From: a virus
Virus record (IMG/VR): IMGVR_UViG_3300021170_000010
Coordinates: 38,900 to 102,899 of that record
Strand: one strand, 5' to 3'
DNA: 64,000 nt
In this document: in pieces, positions 1 through 39,871 of the stretch
Layout of the letters: every line of letters begins with the position of its first letter
Position numbering within the stretch: position 1 is the stretch's first letter
Notes under the pieces: generated by a model
Database searches by the model: none
The model's input: only the letters and a program-made list of their open reading frames with translations
What the model was told of the DNA's origin: nothing
Made by a program: the position numbers and the translations under genes

Positions 1-518
1 CTGCTGCTCACGAGCCGCAGGTCCGGCCTCTGATCGAGCAGCGTGTCTATAGCCGGATCTACCGCCTTCGTACGGTCCCACCGGCCTAAGATCGCGAAGT
101 CGAGGTGTTCTCGGATCTTGAGCCAGAGTTGCCGCTTGTACGGCGCTCCGTGCTTCTCGTCGCGAATCCAGTAGGCTCCGTCTGCGAGTTCGCGGTGCGT
201 GTAGCCGGAGAAAATTCCGACGCTAAAGTCCGGACGGTATGCCTTGACCGCCAGGATCAGCGCGAGGAGTTCGTCGGCCTGCTGCATCGGTTCGCCGCCC
301 GACACGGTGATTCCCTTTGTGCCGACGGCGCAGTGAAGGATGATGTGCCGCGCGAGCGCCTGCGACTCCCAGAGCGTTCCGCCGGAGAGCGGATGCGTGG
401 CGGGATTGTGGCAGCCGGGGCAGTTGAGCGAGCAGCCTTGCAGCCAAATGCAGGTCCGTAACTCTGGGCCGTTGGCGCGCGTTCCGTGAAGGATCGCGTT
501 CTGGTGGATACGGATCAT
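1..518 (-). CDS. NrdG-like radical SAM (4Fe-4S) activating-type enzyme, truncated by window edge
   Basis: Not in ORF track. Hand translation from ATG 518: MIRIHQNAILHGTRANGPELRTCIWLQGCSLNCPGCHNP...GITVSGGEPMQQ...IFSGYT; CxxxCxxC and GGEP motifs typical of the NrdG family. Confidence 0.85.
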   Translation of the reverse strand, partial: MIRIHQNAILHGTRANGPELRTCIWLQGCSLNCPGCHNPATHPLSGGTLWESQALARHIILHCAVGTKGITVSGGEPMQQADELLALILAVKAYRPDFSVGIFSGYTHRELADGAYWIRDEKHGAPYKRQLWLKIREHLDFAILGRWDRTKAVDPAIDTLLDQRPDLRLVSS

Positions 519-1532: not shown

Positions 1533-1711
1533 GCTTTCTGGTCCTCCTTCTGCCGGACGACTTCGAGGTACTCCGGCTTGTTGCGAATCGTCTTGGTCTT
1601 GTCGCCTCCGGCGAAGTCGGCAAGAACGCGTTCGCAGCCTTGACCATGAAAATTTTTCAGGTCAATTTCCGATTCGCCCTCTTCATCTACGGTGATGCTG
1701 ATCTCTTTCAT
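1529..1711 (-). CDS. DUF2997-family protein
   Basis: MKEISITVDEEGESEIDLKNFHGQGC...NKPEY matches the DUF2997 pattern; neighbours are DUF1257 and an AAA ATPase. Confidence 0.75.
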   Translation of the reverse strand: MKEISITVDEEGESEIDLKNFHGQGCERVLADFAGGDKTKTIRNKPEYLEVVRQKEDQKA

Positions 1712-2589
1712 GCGCTTCTCTTCCCTTTCTGTGCGGCAAGCCGCTCTTCGTGAAACCGTTTAACGACTTCGTAGATCGCTTCCGGCCAAATGCAGTACGT
1801 CCAGAGGTTTCCTTTACCGTTCGGAAAGCTGATCTCGTAGACGCCCCCGAACGCTCCCCCGAGCGTACAGATCTTCTCGCCGGAAGTATCTTCGATCACG
1901 TCTACCATCGAATCGGCCATCTTAAAGCGCGCGAGGCCGGACGTCTGTCCAGGCTCCCAATCGAGGCAGATCGGAAGTTTGATCTCTCCGATAGGAGTCC
2001 GCAGCTTTTCACGAAGTTTCCGCGTCTCAGCATCATTCCGTTTCTTCGTTTCTTCACCGGCTTTAATGCGCTCCTGGAGGGCGACTTCGTTTGCTCGCTC
2101 ATCTTCCGCAAAGGCCGCATCTAGTTGCGCTTCTTCGATGCGTTCGATCTGCTTAACGTCCGGTGCGGGAAGACCGTTCATAGAACGCCACCACGCCGGT
2201 ATTGGGTCACCGTGTCCGTCGTCTACTACGATGTTCGGTAGGGATAGGCCGCGTTCCTCAGCTTCGACAGAAACGTAGTTGTTATACGTAAACGCGGAGA
2301 CCACTACGACGAGAGCGCTAGAGTTATCTTCCGCCCACTTAACGAGGTAGCGCGCGTTGTCTTCCATGAGCGAAGTTCCAGGAAGCATTCCGCCGAAGTC
2401 GTATATCACGAGATCAGTTCCGACCTTGATGTCTCCGGGAGAATGCGCGCGGTACCACGCTAGTTTCGCAGGAGCTACGCGCTCTTTATATTCGCGTACG
2501 TGGTCCTTGACTTCTTGTTCCGGAGAGAATTCTCCGAATCCGTGGCCCATCGGATCGACAATGATAGCCGCCTTGATCTTCTGCGGCAT
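1708..2589 (-). CDS. hypothetical protein with N-terminal receiver(REC)-like domain and coiled coil
   Basis: AIIVD...DLVIYD...LVVVVSA spacing resembles the REC beta1/beta3/beta4 strands. Confidence 0.5.
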   Translation of the reverse strand: MPQKIKAAIIVDPMGHGFGEFSPEQEVKDHVREYKERVAPAKLAWYRAHSPGDIKVGTDLVIYDFGGMLPGTSLMEDNARYLVKWAEDNSSALVVVVSAFTYNNYVSVEAEERGLSLPNIVVDDGHGDPIPAWWRSMNGLPAPDVKQIERIEEAQLDAAFAEDERANEVALQERIKAGEETKKRNDAETRKLREKLRTPIGEIKLPICLDWEPGQTSGLARFKMADSMVDVIEDTSGEKICTLGGAFGGVYEISFPNGKGNLWTYCIWPEAIYEVVKRFHEERLAAQKGKRSA

Positions 2590-2591
2590 GG

Positions 2592-2996
2592 CTATCGCGC
2601 TCCGAAGCGGAGCATCACCTTTCCCTTAACCACTTCTCTTCCGAGAAGGACGTGGCCCTTCGCGCGGGCGACGGCCATGTGGCGCTGGACGGTATACCCC
2701 TGCTTTAACTTCCCCATCCAGGTATCGTCGAATTTAGCGCTATGATCATACGCGGAGATAACGGCCTGATAGGTTCCGTCTGGCTGTTTAGAGAAGCCGA
2801 TATCATTCGACGCGCTAATCCCGGTATTCTGGCGTCTGATTATGATATTAGCCTTCTCGTTTCGCTGGTCTCCGCCGTATCCGTAGAGGGGTTGCGCCTC
2901 GGAATGGACTTCATATTTGAACCCCATGTCATCGAGCGCCGCGCAGAGATACCGTTCATCGCGGATCGTAGTCTCAAAAATTCCATACTTTGACAT
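2592..2996 (-). CDS. DUF1257 (Ycf35-like) protein
   Basis: MSKY...ET.I.D...L..AL.DMG...NDIGF....DGTY..V.S.YD pattern; start at 2996. Confidence 0.8.
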   Translation of the reverse strand: MSKYGIFETTIRDERYLCAALDDMGFKYEVHSEAQPLYGYGGDQRNEKANIIIRRQNTGISASNDIGFSKQPDGTYQAVISAYDHSAKFDDTWMGKLKQGYTVQRHMAVARAKGHVLLGREVVKGKVMLRFGAR

Positions 2997-3016: not shown

Positions 3017-3457
3017 TTAGTTTGTGGAATTCCAATGGTCTCGTTGCCATTGATTATGGCAGATACTGCAAAATCGGCTACCGCTAGCTGAGTTAATAGA
3101 ATCGTACGGATGGCCGTTTTTGCAATGCGTCTTACGGGCGTTAATAGCTGCTGGAGATTCGCCGCGTTCTTTATTGATTGAGAGAGGCACTGGATCTAGA
3201 TGTGATGGACGAACACATCGTCTATTTCGGCAAAGATGATCAAGCGTTAGACCGTCCGGGATTGGTCCGACGGAAATCTCGTATGAATAGCGATGGGTTA
3301 ATAGCACTCCACGTGGACGACGATTAATTTGGCCATATCCTGTAGCAGCCATAATGTATCCGGTCCATTCCCAACACGCACCTAAGTCCGGCCTTATAAT
3401 CGGTCCATCTTTATTAACGCGCTTCCAGAAGTCCGATTCCGTAGCTCTAGCTGACAT
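3017..3457 (-). CDS. HNH homing endonuclease
   Basis: CWEWTG...GYG...HR.SY...LDHLCRNRRCVRPSHL plus C-terminal THCKNGH...CSIC; more AT-rich than flanks. Confidence 0.9.
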   Translation of the reverse strand: MSARATESDFWKRVNKDGPIIRPDLGACWEWTGYIMAATGYGQINRRPRGVLLTHRYSYEISVGPIPDGLTLDHLCRNRRCVRPSHLDPVPLSINKERGESPAAINARKTHCKNGHPYDSINSASGSRFCSICHNQWQRDHWNSTN

Positions 3458-3581
3458 GGCGTCTCTCCTGATCCCAGTACGGAGAATGGCACTTCGGGCA
3501 ACAGCGCGGTTCCTTCGTAGACCTGCGCCACCATACGTGAAGGCAGCGCAGGCAGTGTAGTGGATTCTTGATTGATCGCAT
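3447..3581 (-). CDS. small C4 zinc-ribbon protein (44 aa)
   Basis: Hand-translated MRSIKNPLHCLRCLHVWWRRSTKEPRCCPKCHSPYWDQERRHVS. Confidence 0.7.
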   Translation of the reverse strand: MRSIKNPLHCLRCLHVWWRRSTKEPRCCPKCHSPYWDQERRHVS

Positions 3582-3586
3582 ACCTA

Positions 3587-3617
3587 TAGCGTAATACGAT
3601 AATAATATATTACGCTA
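3587..3617. promoter_or_regulatory. 10-bp perfect inverted repeat (operator-like) in AT-rich promoter region
   Basis: TAGCGTAATA-N11-TATTACGCTA immediately upstream of ATG 3581. Confidence 0.6.
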
Positions 3618-3629
3618 CTAGTATTTTTA

Positions 3630-5162
3630 CTAGCCGTTTACCTCCAGGAGCCGTGCTCCGTGCTGTTCTTCCTGCCGTTTCCGCTCGTACGTTCCCGCGT
3701 AGGAAGCTGAGATGAACTTGCCGTCCGCCTGTTCGCGGAGGCGCTGAATGACATCCGGCGAAGACTTCGCGACCGGAACGATGTAGGCTGATGCTTCGAT
3801 CAGAGAGATCCGGAAGCGGTATGCCGTCTGGCAGCACGTCTGAATCTCCGCACCGGTCCAGTCCTTGTCGGAAGGGATCTTCGCCTGCGCGGACTTCAGT
3901 CCGTACTTGCTGATGTAGAGCTTCCAGATCGCCTTCTTCTCTTCGTCCGTCGGGAGATCGCAGAAGAAAGTTGCGCTCTTGAACCGGCGCTTCATCTCCG
4001 GTGAGAGAGTTCCGAAGCTATTGCACGTCGCGATGACGAGTACGTACCCCTGCGATACGGCGTCGATCACCTTGAACGTCTGGCGCAAGGCGAGTCCGCT
4101 CTCCCCGACGAGGCTAGACTTCATCGCCCCGAGGTCGAACGCGATGGTCGGCTTCTTATGGCTGCCGCCGGTGCATTTGGCGAGCATCGACTTGCCGCTG
4201 CCAGCCGGTCCGATCAGCAGAACGGCCTGAATGTTCTTCCGCTCTCCCATCCACGTCAGGAGCGCTCCGACCATCTCGGTCGATACTCCGGACGTATCGG
4301 TTCCAGCTCCGGCCAGCTGCTTTTCAATTTCGTCAATCCAAACGACGCAGCGCGGCGGGTCCTGTCCGGCCATCATCCGCTCGAAGTACTGGATCGCGTT
4401 GTCCGAGCCGCGCATGTCCGCGAACGTCTCGCCTCCGCGCCAGACCGTCAGGCCCTTCGTCGCTTCGATCATGGACCGCTTCCGGTCCCAGAGGTCGTCG
4501 ATGGCGAGTCCAGCCTTGCTGATCGACTCCGCGCAAGCCTGCTCTGCAGGGAAAGCCGCCAGGCCGGAGATCGCTTCAACCGCGTCTCCGAGATCGTCCG
4601 GCGCTTCGAGTTTCGCGCTCTTGTAGATTAGCCGGACGATAATACCGAGTTGCTTTTCGTCCGGCAGCGGCTCGTCGATCACGCGGACGTCCTGCTGGAT
4701 CTCGGTGGGAAGGTCCATAGCCGGACAGACGAGCACGAGCATCCGTCCGGACGACTTGTAGTAGTCGCGGAGATTCCAGACGGCCTGAGAGACGCCGAGT
4801 TGGCTGATGACGCGGTGGGCGTTCAGGAAGAACGTGATCGCGCCGTTCATCCGCATTCTTCCGCTTTCGTCCGGTTCGCTACCCTGAATCCCCATGAGGA
4901 CCTGGAGCGCCGTGACCGGATCTATGAGTTGATCTGGCATTATTCCTTCCGGCATCCGGAGATCCTTAACAGCCTTCGCTCCGGCTTCTCCGAGTCCGCC
5001 GATGCCGCGCACGATATCCCACTGGATAAACGGCGTTCCGTCTCCGTTGAATAATTCGCGGATGGCCTTGATCGTCGCAGCGGGGTCCGCCGTCTGGACG
5101 CAGACGATGGGTGTGCACGCGGTTCGCGCCGCGCGGAATTGAGTGATGAGAGTCTTCGTCAT
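3630..5162 (-). CDS. Ycf46-like AAA+ ATPase with swapped Walker B / Walker A segments
   Basis: VVWIDEIEK (4346-4320) precedes GPAGSGKS (4211-4188); also LVGES, VIATCN, EMKRRF, FFCDLP; degenerate N-terminal domain; start MTKTL at 5162. Confidence 0.85.
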   Translation of the reverse strand: MTKTLITQFRAARTACTPIVCVQTADPAATIKAIRELFNGDGTPFIQWDIVRGIGGLGEAGAKAVKDLRMPEGIMPDQLIDPVTALQVLMGIQGSEPDESGRMRMNGAITFFLNAHRVISQLGVSQAVWNLRDYYKSSGRMLVLVCPAMDLPTEIQQDVRVIDEPLPDEKQLGIIVRLIYKSAKLEAPDDLGDAVEAISGLAAFPAEQACAESISKAGLAIDDLWDRKRSMIEATKGLTVWRGGETFADMRGSDNAIQYFERMMAGQDPPRCVVWIDEIEKQLAGAGTDTSGVSTEMVGALLTWMGERKNIQAVLLIGPAGSGKSMLAKCTGGSHKKPTIAFDLGAMKSSLVGESGLALRQTFKVIDAVSQGYVLVIATCNSFGTLSPEMKRRFKSATFFCDLPTDEEKKAIWKLYISKYGLKSAQAKIPSDKDWTGAEIQTCCQTAYRFRISLIEASAYIVPVAKSSPDVIQRLREQADGKFISASYAGTYERKRQEEQHGARLLEVNG

Positions 5163-5314
5163 GCGGCCTTCCTTTCTTTCCGCAGAGCCGCCGGATTGCC
5201 GCAGGCGAAGCATTTCGCCGTTGCGGTTCCTTCGCTTGAGACGGTTATCACAGCCGTCGGATGAGAACATTTAACGCACGGCATCAACGTTATCGCGTAC
5301 TTGGTCTTCGTCAT
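5159..5314 (-). CDS. small zinc-ribbon protein (51 aa)
   Basis: Hand-translated MTKTKYAITLMPCVKCSH...KCFACGN...KAA; ATGA overlaps on both sides. Confidence 0.6.
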   Translation of the reverse strand: MTKTKYAITLMPCVKCSHPTAVITVSSEGTATAKCFACGNPAALRKERKAA

Positions 5315-5691
5315 TTCTTGCCTTTCTCCTTCGCGGCCATAGACCGCAGTTTTTCGATGATCGAATTGAGGGTGACCTGAGTCTTATGCGCTTCGAGGTC
5401 ATCCCAATGATTCAGTCCGCAGCCGGAGCACTTCTCCTTCTTCGGGCGTAGCTTCGTAGCGTAGCGCTTTAGGATAACGAGCGCTTCGAGAGCCGCCTTA
5501 CCGCCTTCGGATAAAGCCGCGCAGGTCGGATTATCCGGATGATGATAACTGCGGCAGGATTCGCACCACGGGAAGCCGTTCTTATCGTCTCGATAATGAA
5601 ACGGACACGTCGATTGCGTTCCTTCGAGAACGCGCTTGCAATGATCGCACGTGTCCGGCCTCATTCCGGCTGCGATGGTTAGGTTGTTCAT
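5311..5691 (-). CDS. Cys/His-rich hypothetical protein
   Basis: Start MNNLTI at 5691 after GGAGG; CDHC, CESC and CSGC motifs. Confidence 0.6.
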   Translation of the reverse strand: MNNLTIAAGMRPDTCDHCKRVLEGTQSTCPFHYRDDKNGFPWCESCRSYHHPDNPTCAALSEGGKAALEALVILKRYATKLRPKKEKCSGCGLNHWDDLEAHKTQVTLNSIIEKLRSMAAKEKGKK

Positions 5692-10453: not shown

Positions 10454-10654
10454 ATGGAAGCGAGTTCGAAGCGCGGCCCGATGCCGCTCGCCTGTCCGTA
10501 CTGCCGCCGTCCGTTCGCTGAAGAGTTCGTGATCTCCCTATTTTCGAGCTGGCGAAGCCTTAAGCGGAAGGTCTTTAGCGGAGGAAGGCTCGGAGGACGT
10601 CATCCGAAGGGATGCGCGTGCGGGCGCTGCGAGTGGTCGCGCGATGCTACCTAA
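10454..10654 (+). CDS. small Cys-rich basic protein (possible DNA-binding regulator)
   Basis: CPYC...GGRLGGRHP..CACGRC; overlaps the TnpB start. Confidence 0.55.
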   Translation: MEASSKRGPMPLACPYCRRPFAEEFVISLFSSWRSLKRKVFSGGRLGGRHPKGCACGRCEWSRDAT

Positions 10655-11780
10655 AATGATCCGCTCGTTCGAGTTCCGATTAAAGCTAACAAAGGCGCAG
10701 TTTCTGGCTTTCGAAGAAATCCTTCGCGATTCCTGCGAGACGTATAATGCCGCGCTCCAGGAGCGTAGGGATGCGTGGAGGATTTGCCGGAAGAAGATTA
10801 CGCTCTATGATCAGTATAATGAATTAACGGAACTGCGCCAAGATCCGCGCTTCGCGACCATTTCCGCTGAAATTCAGCGTGATCCTTTGCGTCGTATCGA
10901 CCGCGCGTTTAAAGCGTTCTTCCGCCGCTGTAAGCGCGGAGAAAAGCCAGGATATCCGCGCTTTAAATCACGCGATCACTACCATTCCTTCGCGTGGGGT
11001 TCTCCAGTTCTAAATCCCGATTCTATCCGTATTCCGAATCTCGGCTTAGTCCGCTATAAGGCCCACCGCCCGCTAGCCGGGACTCCGAAGCAGATCGTCG
11101 TGAAGCGCGTCGGAAAGAAGTGGATCGCGCGGATAGTCTGCGATCTTGGCCCAGCACCGTCGAAGGTGGCCATCTTAAATGCGGTCGGAATCGACCTCGG
11201 ACTGACGACGTTTGCTACGCTTTCGGACGGTTCCGAAGTACCGAATCCGCGCTTCGTTCAGAAGCACGCGCAGTCCATCGCGAGGGCGCAGAAGAATCTG
11301 GCGCGAAAGAAGCGCGGAAGTAAGAACCGGCTCCGCGCGAAAGAATCCGCGCGGCGAGCGTACCAGCGGATGGCGGACGCGCGGAAGAACTTCACGCATT
11401 ACATATCGAAGGAACTCGTGGCGCGGTACGACCTGATCGCGCACGAAGATTTGAAGATCGCGAATATGGCGCGAGGCCACTTCGCGAAGTCTATTTTAGG
11501 AGCGGCGTGGGGACAACTGCTATTTCAGTTAGCGTACAAGGCTGAGAGCGCCGGACGCTACGTGATAGCCGTTAATCCCCGGAATACGTCCCAGATCTGT
11601 TCACAGTGCGGCGCGCTAGTTCGGAAGAAACTCTCCGAACGTCAGCACGTCTGCGCCTGCGGAGCGGACCTGGGACGCGATCATAATGCCGCGATCAACG
11701 TATTGAACCTTGGGCTCGGTAGGAGCCTTGCAGCTGCGCAGGCGGCTTCAGAAGGATCAGTAAAATCCGCTACCCGCTAA
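10644..11780 (+). CDS. tnpB: IS200/IS605-family TnpB RNA-guided endonuclease
   Basis: HTH N-terminus, GYPRFK, RuvC GIDLG / HEDL / RDHNAAIN, Zn finger TSQICSQCG..CACG; catalytic D-E-D present. Confidence 0.95.
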   Translation: MLPKMIRSFEFRLKLTKAQFLAFEEILRDSCETYNAALQERRDAWRICRKKITLYDQYNELTELRQDPRFATISAEIQRDPLRRIDRAFKAFFRRCKRGEKPGYPRFKSRDHYHSFAWGSPVLNPDSIRIPNLGLVRYKAHRPLAGTPKQIVVKRVGKKWIARIVCDLGPAPSKVAILNAVGIDLGLTTFATLSDGSEVPNPRFVQKHAQSIARAQKNLARKKRGSKNRLRAKESARRAYQRMADARKNFTHYISKELVARYDLIAHEDLKIANMARGHFAKSILGAAWGQLLFQLAYKAESAGRYVIAVNPRNTSQICSQCGALVRKKLSERQHVCACGADLGRDHNAAINVLNLGLGRSLAAAQAASEGSVKSATR

Positions 11781-38393: not shown

Positions 38394-39871
38394 TGAAACT
38401 TATAGTATCAACCGCATTCTTTGCCGTGAATCTTTGGGCGCAAGGCGTGGTAAATCCTCCAGCGGTAGCGACGTATCCCGCTGCTGGTATCGCCAAATCG
38501 ACAGGTAGCGCGTGGGCTTCGAGTTACGGTGTGACGGGAACTGGCAGCAACGTAATGCTGAATTTGGACCCCACATTCCCGCTCAACAATAGCGGCCCTG
38601 TCCTGACGTGGGACCCGCAGCAGGCTGATGGGATCAAGTTCTACCATAACCTTTCAGTCGCGGCGAATCCAGGTGACCCGACCAACGGAAATCCGGCCAC
38701 TAACTGGACGTACAACATAAATTCTGGCGGCGGTGCGGCCAATCCAGCGCAGACAGGGTGGGGATGGGCCGAGGAAGGCAACTATTGCCCGACTTACCAC
38801 AACGGTACCGATCTCGTGGTGGATGGGTCGAATAACCTGAATGTTAGCAGTGCCTCTTACAACTTCGTCGCTGGCGACGTTAACCGGCAAATTCAGATCA
38901 CGGCTGGCACCGGCTGGACACACGGCTATTACACCGTCTCCAGCGTGGCCGCAAACAAAGCAATTCTTGCATCGTCCCCTGCGCCTGTAGGTACGACGGG
39001 CGGCACGTGGTGGCTGGATGACTGTAGACATGAGGCGCACGTCTTCTTTGTGGACCGCAGCGGCGTGCAGCATCGACCGTTCTCCTTGACAGTGAGCAAA
39101 TATGATTCGCTCGGCGCGGCAGGATCATGGGTTTATCTGCTTCACTTCAACACCATAAGTTTCTTCAACGGAGACGACGGAGCGGGGACCAGCGGCAACA
39201 TCAGCGCAGGAACCATCAACATGCTCGGCTACAAAACCGCTGGCACATATACGGACGGCTGGACAATTGGCACAAACCCTAGCACCGCTCAGGTGACATT
39301 TGGTAGCTTGGGTTCCCACTCCAACGCCTTGATTTTCAGCGCCTGGACATCGATCTCAATGGGTAACGTCTCGATCAACCCCAACAACGGTAATGCCCTC
39401 TCGGTTACCGGCAACGTACTTGCCTCGGCTGGCTTGCAAGGCGCGAGCGGCAACTTCGTCACCGCTGGAGCTCCACTCGTGATTTTCAATAACACATCGG
39501 GCGGCACCAACACGTCCGACATCCGATTTCAGTCAAACGGAACGAATCGCTGGCAGATCAACGACAATGGCGGCATCGGAATGCATGACTATGTTGGCGC
39601 TCGATCCGTTTTTTTCGCGGCAAGCAACGGGCCGCTTGAACTGATGCCGGATGGCGGCAAAGGTGTAACGGTGGGCAGCACGGTTACTGACCCAGGAGCC
39701 AATAATCTAGCAGTGACAGGCACGATCAAGTTCCTTGGCACAAACAGCACCGCCGCCGTGGTCGGGGTTATCGGCTCAACTTGCCCAGCGGTCACATGCA
39801 CGGCAGCTTATACCTGGGTGCAGGCCGTCGCCGCAGACGGCTCAACGATTTGGATACCGGCCTGGAAATAA
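38393..39871 (+). CDS. fibre-like protein with N-terminal signal peptide
   Basis: Start 38393 (TAATG overlap): MKLIVSTAFFAVNLWA/Q; G/S/T/N-rich; fibre-like C-terminus WVQAVAADGSTIWIPAWK. Confidence 0.65.
   Translation: MKLIVSTAFFAVNLWAQGVVNPPAVATYPAAGIAKSTGSAWASSYGVTGTGSNVMLNLDPTFPLNNSGPVLTWDPQQADGIKFYHNLSVAANPGDPTNGNPATNWTYNINSGGGAANPAQTGWGWAEEGNYCPTYHNGTDLVVDGSNNLNVSSASYNFVAGDVNRQIQITAGTGWTHGYYTVSSVAANKAILASSPAPVGTTGGTWWLDDCRHEAHVFFVDRSGVQHRPFSLTVSKYDSLGAAGSWVYLLHFNTISFFNGDDGAGTSGNISAGTINMLGYKTAGTYTDGWTIGTNPSTAQVTFGSLGSHSNALIFSAWTSISMGNVSINPNNGNALSVTGNVLASAGLQGASGNFVTAGAPLVIFNNTSGGTNTSDIRFQSNGTNRWQINDNGGIGMHDYVGARSVFFAASNGPLELMPDGGKGVTVGSTVTDPGANNLAVTGTIKFLGTNSTAAVVGVIGSTCPAVTCTAAYTWVQAVAADGSTIWIPAWK

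Follow-up and report, generated by a model that had tools for sequence, protein, structure and literature searches.

The locus described here raises the question of whether an AAA+ ATPase can keep its fold and its catalytic residues when the segments that carry them stand in a different order along the chain. Our study concerned a window of 64,000 nucleotides (positions 38,900 to 102,899 of IMG/VR virus record IMGVR_UViG_3300021170_000010), which forms the final 64 kb of a soil-phage genome that is complete at 102,899 bp and has direct terminal repeats, and within it a gene for a two-domain AAA ATPase of 510 amino acids (aa). Few molecular machines have been studied as much as the AAA+ ATPases, and in textbooks, profiles and annotation pipelines the order of their motifs is taken as constant, running Walker A, Walker B, sensor 1 and Arg finger. 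Along the second domain (D2) of the window protein the order was found to be Walker B, an LLTWM helix, Walker A, the pore loop LVGES, sensor 1 and a pair of arginines. We consider it probable that this is a real gene for an ATPase of the two-ring type, with an inactive first domain (D1) and a catalytic D2 of the classical AAA kind, in which two adjacent segments of D2 have been exchanged.

Block order in the catalytic domain

The Pfam profile PF00004 matched the window protein in three stretches, whereas the normal-order phage proteins used for comparison (Mycobacterium phage Corndog gp96, Rhodobacter phage RcTiptonus gp60 and Pseudomonas phage SM1 gp026) carry Walker A before Walker B and each matched the profile in one stretch, over its positions 1–130. 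When pieces of the window protein were scanned separately against a cut-off of 21.2 bits, residues 258–310 aligned to profile positions 48–97 at 23.2 bits and residues 314–367 aligned to positions 1–54 at 30 bits. A sequence-only reading that preceded this analysis had predicted out-of-order local matches of this kind, and both pieces scored above the family cut-off. The chain order on which PF00004 is built (Walker A, Walker B, sensor 1) is not that of the window protein. BLAST against RcTiptonus gp60 also produced two out-of-order alignments, of residues 312–421 to 305–459 and of residues 272–308 to 365–404, the latter a stretch of 37 residues with Walker B that is 45 % identical. SM1 gp026 was likewise aligned in two out-of-order pieces, and a single alignment was obtained only after an in silico swap. 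A profile of the family found no collinear match among all PDB sequences, and against the D2 domain of p97 it aligned out of order, with 296–346, 254–302 and 339–435 corresponding to 312–362, 369–420 and 397–500, respectively.

In a swap-back test, residues 272–312 (block B) and 313–372 (block A) were exchanged in silico and the product was scored against the three normal-order proteins. The score rose from 58 bits in the native order to 113 bits against Corndog gp96, from 51 to 98 bits against RcTiptonus gp60 and from 45 to 92 bits against SM1 gp026, and the swapped-back protein gave one collinear alignment through the ATPase core with each of these references. Sliding the three breakpoints by 5, 10, 20 or more residues lowered the score in every case, with the maximum at the chosen breakpoints. 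The cuts sit just before beta1, beta3 and beta4, and the loop motifs stay with the preceding helices.

On this evidence D2 has undergone a clean exchange of an adjacent 41-residue block and 60-residue block. A normal D2 runs alpha0, then a block of beta1 with the P-loop, alpha1, beta2, pore loop 1 and alpha2, then a block of beta3 and alpha3, and then beta4; in the window protein the order is alpha0, the beta3–alpha3 block, the block from beta1 to alpha2, and beta4. The PPR loop (PP[RK]), which normally leads into beta1, leads here into beta3. The sequence-only reading had described a clean, in-frame swap of two beta-alpha blocks with every motif intact, and this description stands as far as the swap is concerned. 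The blocks, however, are not equal units, since the shorter is beta-alpha and the longer is beta-alpha-beta-alpha. Its view of the change as a non-circular permutation was also upheld, as the re-ordering is confined to residues 272–372, with D1 and alpha0 on the N-terminal side and beta4, the elements after it and the lid on the C-terminal side left where they normally stand. The rearrangement is thus best described as a non-circular permutation and not as a circular permutation of the whole domain.

The residue patterns of classical AAA proteins were all found, namely Walker A as GxxxxGK[ST], Walker B as hhhhDE, sensor 1 (ATCN, residues 378–381) and the Arg fingers (RR, residues 392–393). Pore loop 1 follows beta2, and the sensor 1 Asn and the two adjacent arginines of the second region of homology are likewise shared with classical AAA proteins. 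The window protein possesses every residue-level feature of the class and departs from it in chain order alone.

Predicted fold and coevolution

AlphaFold2, supplied with family alignments, gave a model of the whole protein with a predicted local distance difference test score (pLDDT) of 93.4 and a predicted template modelling score (pTM) of 0.88, and a model of D2 alone with values of 95.6 and 0.91, respectively. The elements of D2 in the model run alpha0 (254–265), beta3 (272–276), alpha3 (293–307), beta1 (311–317), alpha1 (324–334), beta2 (339–342), alpha2 (354–370), beta4 (374–380), a helix (388–393) and beta5 (397–400), followed by the lid. At the level of prediction this is an alpha-beta-alpha fold with a parallel 5-1-4-3-2 sheet and a helical lid. 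An AlphaFold model had been put forward as a check together with the original reading, and its outcome was a confident classical AAA fold, with coevolution placing the moved strand beside beta4 and the end of alpha2.

Foldseek aligned the whole model on the tandem D1–D2 AAA proteins Rix7, NVL and p97/Cdc48. The best structural matches were Vps4, spastin, FIGNL1, the D2 of p97/Cdc48, Rix7 and NVL (Z 15–17, root-mean-square deviation 2.5–3.3 Å over approximately 200–210 residues). D2 matched Vps4 at Z 17.1 and 2.8 Å over 209 residues, and also superposed on FIGNL1, p97-D2 and spastin. Unlike the window protein, the solved structures of classical AAA proteins all have the standard chain order. 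Approximately 44 residues of the D2 core of about 253 residues were left unaligned by the sequential aligner, which is about the size of block B, and such an omission would be expected if block B is spatially in place but out of chain order. A fold search of BFVD found no collinear permuted member, and its best matches were normal-order 'ycf46'-like phage proteins with a template modelling score of 0.6.

Mean-field direct coupling analysis (DCA) of 264 family sequences, approximately 200 of them effective, gave C272–S370 as the strongest pair overall, joining the start of beta3 to the last turn of alpha2. This pair marks the ancestral covalent junction, the two sides of which are now 98 residues apart, and the same contact was backed by R271–Q371. 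Further pairs connected beta3 with beta4 (V274–V376 and I279–A378), beta1 with beta4 (L315–I377) and beta1 with beta5 (L316–C401 and Q312–S396), while alpha3 was linked with beta4, alpha2 and alpha4, and alpha0 with alpha1, beta1 and beta5. This pattern is consistent with the canonical 5-1-4-3-2 sheet. From the similarity of fold and the coevolution we infer that Lys324 and Asp277/Glu278 come together in one active site.

The topology of the sheet offers an account of how such an exchange could be tolerated. In a parallel 5-1-4-3-2 sheet, beta1, beta4 and beta3 would be adjacent and would start at the same edge, so that the new connections (alpha0–beta3, alpha3–beta1 and alpha2–beta4) would be short. 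Beta1 would begin one strand away from where alpha3, which normally continues into beta4, comes to its end, and beta4 would begin one strand away from where alpha2, which normally continues into beta3, comes to its end. Only alpha0 would have to reach two strands further, to beta3, a distance that the conserved six-residue GxxPPR loop could span, and the handedness of every crossover would be preserved. An ATP site of unaltered three-dimensional form could then be built from Lys324, Asp277/Glu278 and Asn381, with Arg392/393 contributed by the neighbouring subunit. Ring assembly and ATP hydrolysis may then drive the remodelling or unfolding of a protein substrate via the pore loops.

Distribution, conservation and alternative explanations

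More than 430 homologues were checked and found to carry the swapped order. In a collection of 5.8 billion proteins the top 120 homologues were 45–62 % identical to the window protein over the full length, and all had the same order. Exhaustive searching across the representatives of 1.84 billion 50 %-identity clusters returned 5738 matches, 1141 of them at E ≤1e-30, and each of the best 150 representatives had E <1e-98 and aligned collinearly with the entire query. Relatives of the AAA gene were found on 153 viral contigs in IMG/VR and in at least 508 genomes in GTDB (one genome per species), mostly from Acidobacteriota, Nitrospirota and Armatimonadota; the Acidobacteriota among the carriers listed include Bryobacteraceae and Terriglobia. 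The complete chromosome of Nitrospira moscoviensis carries a permuted AAA gene between a class II ribonucleotide reductase gene and primase-like and SNF2 genes, at a locus that looks like an integrated element. We assembled a set of 80 IMG/VR loci, the Tunturiibacter phage Tunturi_3 locus and 80 loci from bacterial genomes, and in this set 161 of 161 AAA genes were collinear with the query. Among cultured phages a single member turned up, Tunturi_3 gp103, with the swapped order and 37 % identity over 96 % of the length. The sequence-only reading had called for homologues of the same order, which proved abundant, and had considered the variant to be possibly phage-specific. Its occurrence in phages was borne out, but not its restriction to them, as it is also present in prophage-like regions of bacterial chromosomes such as that of N. 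moscoviensis.

These homologues bear directly on the possibility that a mis-join or chimera in the metagenome contig created the order. The record is metagenome-derived, and the one DNA sequencing run that contains the stretch is probably its own source sample, with no RNA run among those listed. However, the order recurs in the more than 430 independent sequences, drawn from many studies and including a cultured phage and a complete chromosome, and a second assembler applied to the probable source run reproduced positions 3400–5400 without any difference at a depth of 52.6. An assembly check across the swap, also suggested at the outset, thus gave an identical result. Because the homologues share the order, which marks it as a trait of the family, an assembly artefact is considered refuted and its probability is close to nil.

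Phylogenetic inference from 68 permuted proteins, whose blocks were rearranged so that they could be aligned, and 58 proteins of normal order gave one bipartition that parts the two groups with a support of 0.89–1.0. The mean distance between permuted and normal-order proteins was 4.29 substitutions per site, compared to 1.8–2.0 inside each group, and Corndog gp96 was the nearest normal-order sequence. Several independent origins of the swap among Ycf46-like ATPases would be conceivable through repeated conversion, given that normal-order and permuted forms occupy the same module in different phages, but all aligned members have identical breakpoints and the single bipartition lies on a long branch. 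We therefore regard multiple origins as very improbable, and the sequences suggest that the swap likely arose once. The simplest route would be a tandem duplication of the segment from beta1 to alpha3, followed by loss of the first copy of beta1–alpha2 and the last copy of beta3–alpha3, which would in effect permute an internal segment circularly. No duplication intermediates were found.

Conservation was examined across 162 sequences. The Walker B residue E278, K281 (the conserved Lys of the DEIEK motif) and the P-loop residues G321 and K324 were present in all 162, and the other Walker B acid, D277, in 161. G353 of pore loop 1 was found in 159 sequences, T379 in the sensor 1 region, the sensor 1 residue N381 and the Arg finger R393 in 156 each, and the Arg finger R392 in 140. 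In alignment A1, residues D277, E278, K281, K324, G353, T379, N381, R392 and R393 were all invariant. The catalytic residues of the family are under selection. Furthermore, Pfam identified inteins or homing-endonuclease inserts in five permuted members (P0126, P0156, P0194, P0226 and P0234), three of them at the P-loop, with the break near residues 321–325, and two near residue 386, by the Arg-finger helix; inteins typically settle in indispensable sites. Normal-order members (P0310, P0315, P0318, P0319, P0322, P0323, P0325 and others) also carry apparent intein or homing-endonuclease inserts, flagged by length (846–876 aa) and, for some, by precomputed intein or HNH domains. The insert-bearing proteins of both families are approximately 650–900 aa long.

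Several observations weigh against the reading of D2 as a conventional, catalytic AAA domain with two segments exchanged. The residue before the P-loop Lys (position 323) is Ala in 98, Gly in 41, Ser in 17 and Cys in 6 of the 162 sequences, so that it deviates in approximately 75 % of members, and the typical P-loop of the family is GPPGAAKS. Pore loop 1 does not have the usual aromatic residue, and with the PPR loop now leading into beta3 the adenine pocket may differ. The order of the sheet and the proximity of Lys324 to Asp277/Glu278 are deduced from prediction and coevolution, and as AlphaFold and DCA draw on the same alignment they are not fully independent. With approximately 200 effective sequences, DCA gave no clear beta3–beta2 pair and at least one unexpected pair (alpha0–beta2), and a few pairs resemble noise. 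The normal-order sample in the tree was narrow (RcTiptonus-like, Corndog and SM1), which limits how far a single origin can be relied on, and the evidence for every member of the family consists of sequence and prediction.

The peculiarities of the P-loop, pore loop and PPR loop, together with a site geometry taken from prediction, would suit an ATPase that has kept its motifs and yet does not work, either as a nucleotide-binding or structural pseudo-enzyme or because the moved strand has been repositioned and the Walker A/B site split. We judge this to be unlikely. Sequences that share only 37–60 % identity hardly vary at the catalytic Glu, at the Lys, at sensor 1 and at one Arg finger, residues that a dead enzyme should have lost; the window protein itself retains the canonical Gly at position 323, within GPAGSGKS; inteins have settled at the P-loop; and DCA sets beta3 beside beta4 and the end of alpha2. 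A similar A-K-S P-loop is found in MCM proteins, which are active. Coevolution is blind to whether a contact lies within or between chains, and block B comes early in D2, behind a loop that looks flexible, so a three-dimensional domain swap could be envisaged, with block B inserted into the sheet of the neighbouring protomer and the site complete only in the oligomer. This is decidedly improbable, as the monomer model is very confident through this region (pLDDT 83–98 per ten-residue block across residues 266–320) and the alpha0–beta3 and alpha3–beta1 linkers, of about six residues, are short for reaching a neighbour. We retain the reading of a single-chain, exchanged D2 and hold with moderate confidence that the window protein is an active AAA ATPase.

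Gene module and meaning for the family

The AAA gene likely starts at 5162 and not at the in-frame ATG at 5270, because a Shine-Dalgarno-like site and the N-termini of homologues, which align at residues 1–8 of the 510-aa protein, fit the former (Table 1). D1 has a normal strand order, is without a P-loop and without the acidic Walker B pair, and is common to Corndog gp96, as seen by alignment to the gp96 N-domain.

Table 1. Positions of the AAA gene, its parts and its neighbours in the window
Feature	Position	Strand	Remarks
Radical SAM / Fer4_12 gene (NrdG-like activase)	3-518	(-)	Runs off the left edge of the window
DUF2997-like gene, 60 aa	1529..1711	(-)	Weak Pfam match, E 0.025
293-aa gene between DUF1257 and DUF2997	1708..2589	(-)	Family-less
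DUF1257 (Ycf35-like) gene	2592..2996	(-)	PF06868 at 6.2e-12
HNH homing-type endonuclease gene	3017..3457	(-)	PF13392 at 6.9e-10; between the AAA and DUF1257 genes
Whole gene, two-domain AAA ATPase (P0001), 510 aa	3630..5162	(-)	Stop codon included; no internal stop on translation
C-terminal helical lid and tail, residues 403-510	3633..3956	(-)	Collinear with Corndog gp96
Residues 373-402: beta4 and sensor 1 (T379, N381), Arg-finger helix R392-R393, beta5	3957..4046	(-)	DSSP
Block A, residues 313-372 (60 aa): beta1, P-loop, alpha1, beta2, pore loop 1, alpha2	4047..4226	(-)	
Pore loop 1 LVGES, residues 351-355	4098..4112	(-)	Leu where most classical AAA have an aromatic residue
Walker A GPAGSGKS, residues 318-325, with K324	4188..4211	(-)	
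Block B, residues 272-312 (41 aa): beta3 and Walker B, pore-loop-2 region GTDTSGVS, alpha3 (LLTWM)	4227..4349	(-)	
Walker B catalytic pair D277-E278	4329..4334	(-)	Motif VVWIDE, residues 273-278
D2 entry, residues 235-271: short strand, alpha0 (254-265), conserved PPR loop	4350..4460	(-)	DSSP, alignment
D1, residues 1-234: degenerate AAA-like domain and helical lid	4461..5162	(-)	DSSP of model
Shine-Dalgarno-like AAGGAAGG	5167..5174	(-)	4 nt before the ATG at 5162; read from the sequence

Genes of the surrounding module were counted in the 161 related loci using profiles seeded from the window genes. DUF1257 was found in 135 of these loci, on the same strand as the AAA gene and usually directly after it, and a small DUF2997-like gene stood right after DUF1257 in 107. 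In many bacterial copies (L133, L118, L091, L112 and others) the DUF1257–DUF2997 pair does not follow the AAA gene but stands approximately 0.7–1.3 kb upstream of it, in the same orientation. In an Acidobacteriota metagenome-assembled genome (L097:3796-5739, (+) strand), a 647-aa frame combines a permuted AAA (residues 2–491) with DUF1257 (residues 501–646); it is the only joined AAA–DUF1257 frame among the 161 loci and is either a natural fusion or the result of a lost stop codon. DUF1257 belongs to the uncharacterised Ycf35 family of plastids and cyanobacteria (PMC13060386), and in cyanobacteria DUF2997, Ycf35 and the ferredoxin gene fed7 are clustered (PMC4284462). A complex prediction for AAA with DUF1257 scored 0.00, below the mark, and is evidence for neither side. 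A tblastn search of cultured phages with two DUF1257 proteins returned Tunturi_3 or nothing, the method being too insensitive for proteins so small.

The window has its own variations on this module. The HNH gene is probably a recent selfish insertion into it; among 81 related viral loci, only 2 have a similar gene close to the one for the AAA protein, and the end of the HNH gene overlaps the long form of the DUF1257 frame. The likely DUF1257 start is the MSK at 2996, in a frame that is open to 3050, as homologues start with MSK, MSH or MSQ. For the 293-aa gene, neither Pfam nor PADLOC gave a match, and the 161 loci contained no relative. The NrdG-like gene lies approximately 1 kb downstream of the DUF2997-like gene and, with the ribonucleotide reductase gene beside the N. 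moscoviensis copy, hints at a link to nucleotide metabolism. Elsewhere in the window, a gene of the TnpB / IS605 OrfB type (PF01385, PF07282) is located at 10644-11780 (+). A place in a known defence system was considered and rejected: similarity to the IetA defence ATPase (NF042959) reached 35.4 bits against a cut-off of 510, the PADLOC IetA profile gave 43 bits in two pieces, and PADLOC and NCBIfam gave generic similarity to IetA, CDC48 and TRIP13 only.

The closest comparison is with the normal-order, Ycf46-like AAA proteins of phages. RcTiptonus gp60, SM1 gp026 (labelled 'ycf46'-like in UniProt) and Corndog gp96 share with the window protein a degenerate D1, a catalytic D2 and a lid, as well as the DEIEK motif, the LTWMQ helix and LPPE...R. 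RcTiptonus (gp60–63) and SM1 (gp026–030) have the same module, in the order AAA, a gene of about 230–320 aa, a 126-aa gene (DUF1257 in SM1) and DUF2997, whereas Corndog gp96 is without DUF1257 and DUF2997 partners. The genes of 230–320 aa between AAA and DUF1257 look unrelated to the 293-aa gene. By this gene order, the permuted enzyme fills the same slot in the module as the normal-order AAA. In Tunturi_3 (GenBank PP885686) the permuted gp103 is followed by DUF1257 (gp102) and DUF2997 (gp101), and both domains pass Pfam cut-offs there and in SM1; it differs from the window in its P-loop, GVPGVSKS, and in having no HNH gene between AAA and DUF1257.

A working model can be drawn from these associations. 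The AAA protein would probably work with the co-encoded DUF1257 and DUF2997 proteins, as would the normal-order AAA in the module of other phages. D1 might form a ring that acts as a scaffold or binds adaptors, the DUF1257 and DUF2997 proteins could be adaptors or clients, and the activity of the module may fall early in the phage programme, in its phase of nucleotide metabolism. We advance the biology of a ring-forming protein remodeller or unfoldase for this module with low confidence.

Rearranged motif order has a precedent in other P-loop nucleoside triphosphatases. The YlqF/YawG GTPases of the TRAFAC class are circularly permuted, with the order G4-G5-G1-G2-G3, and keep their fold and site. 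However, theirs is a permutation of the whole domain, whereas in the present family, of the AAA+ class, both ends of the domain are fixed and two internal segments are exchanged. A full-text literature search, in which subscription journals were thinly covered, found no paper on this family that describes a permutation of the AAA or P-loop order, and the paper on the Tunturi phages does not mention the ATPase. We lean slightly towards regarding the family as the first recognised natural case of an internal segment-swap (non-circular) permutation of the AAA+/ASCE P-loop core in a fully active ring ATPase.

The family is under-annotated because profile searches match only fragments of its members: Tunturi_3 gp103 is labelled only 'ATPase', and 'hypothetical' is the label of many others. 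The similarity of the family to known structures is likewise underrated by structure aligners that follow the chain. If the reading of an exchanged but active D2 is true, AAA+ mechanochemistry would not require the beta-alpha units to be arranged in one fixed order around the ATP site, and this large, old family would show which connections of the fold can be dispensed with. It would also be a concrete example of an internal permutation reached by duplication and loss. The permuted and normal-order enzymes found in the same module would be matched natural pairs in which the effects of connectivity on folding, subunit coupling and threading may be compared. The conserved link with DUF1257 (Ycf35) and DUF2997, two uncharacterised families that are widespread in cyanobacteria and plastids, also gives a pointer to their function.

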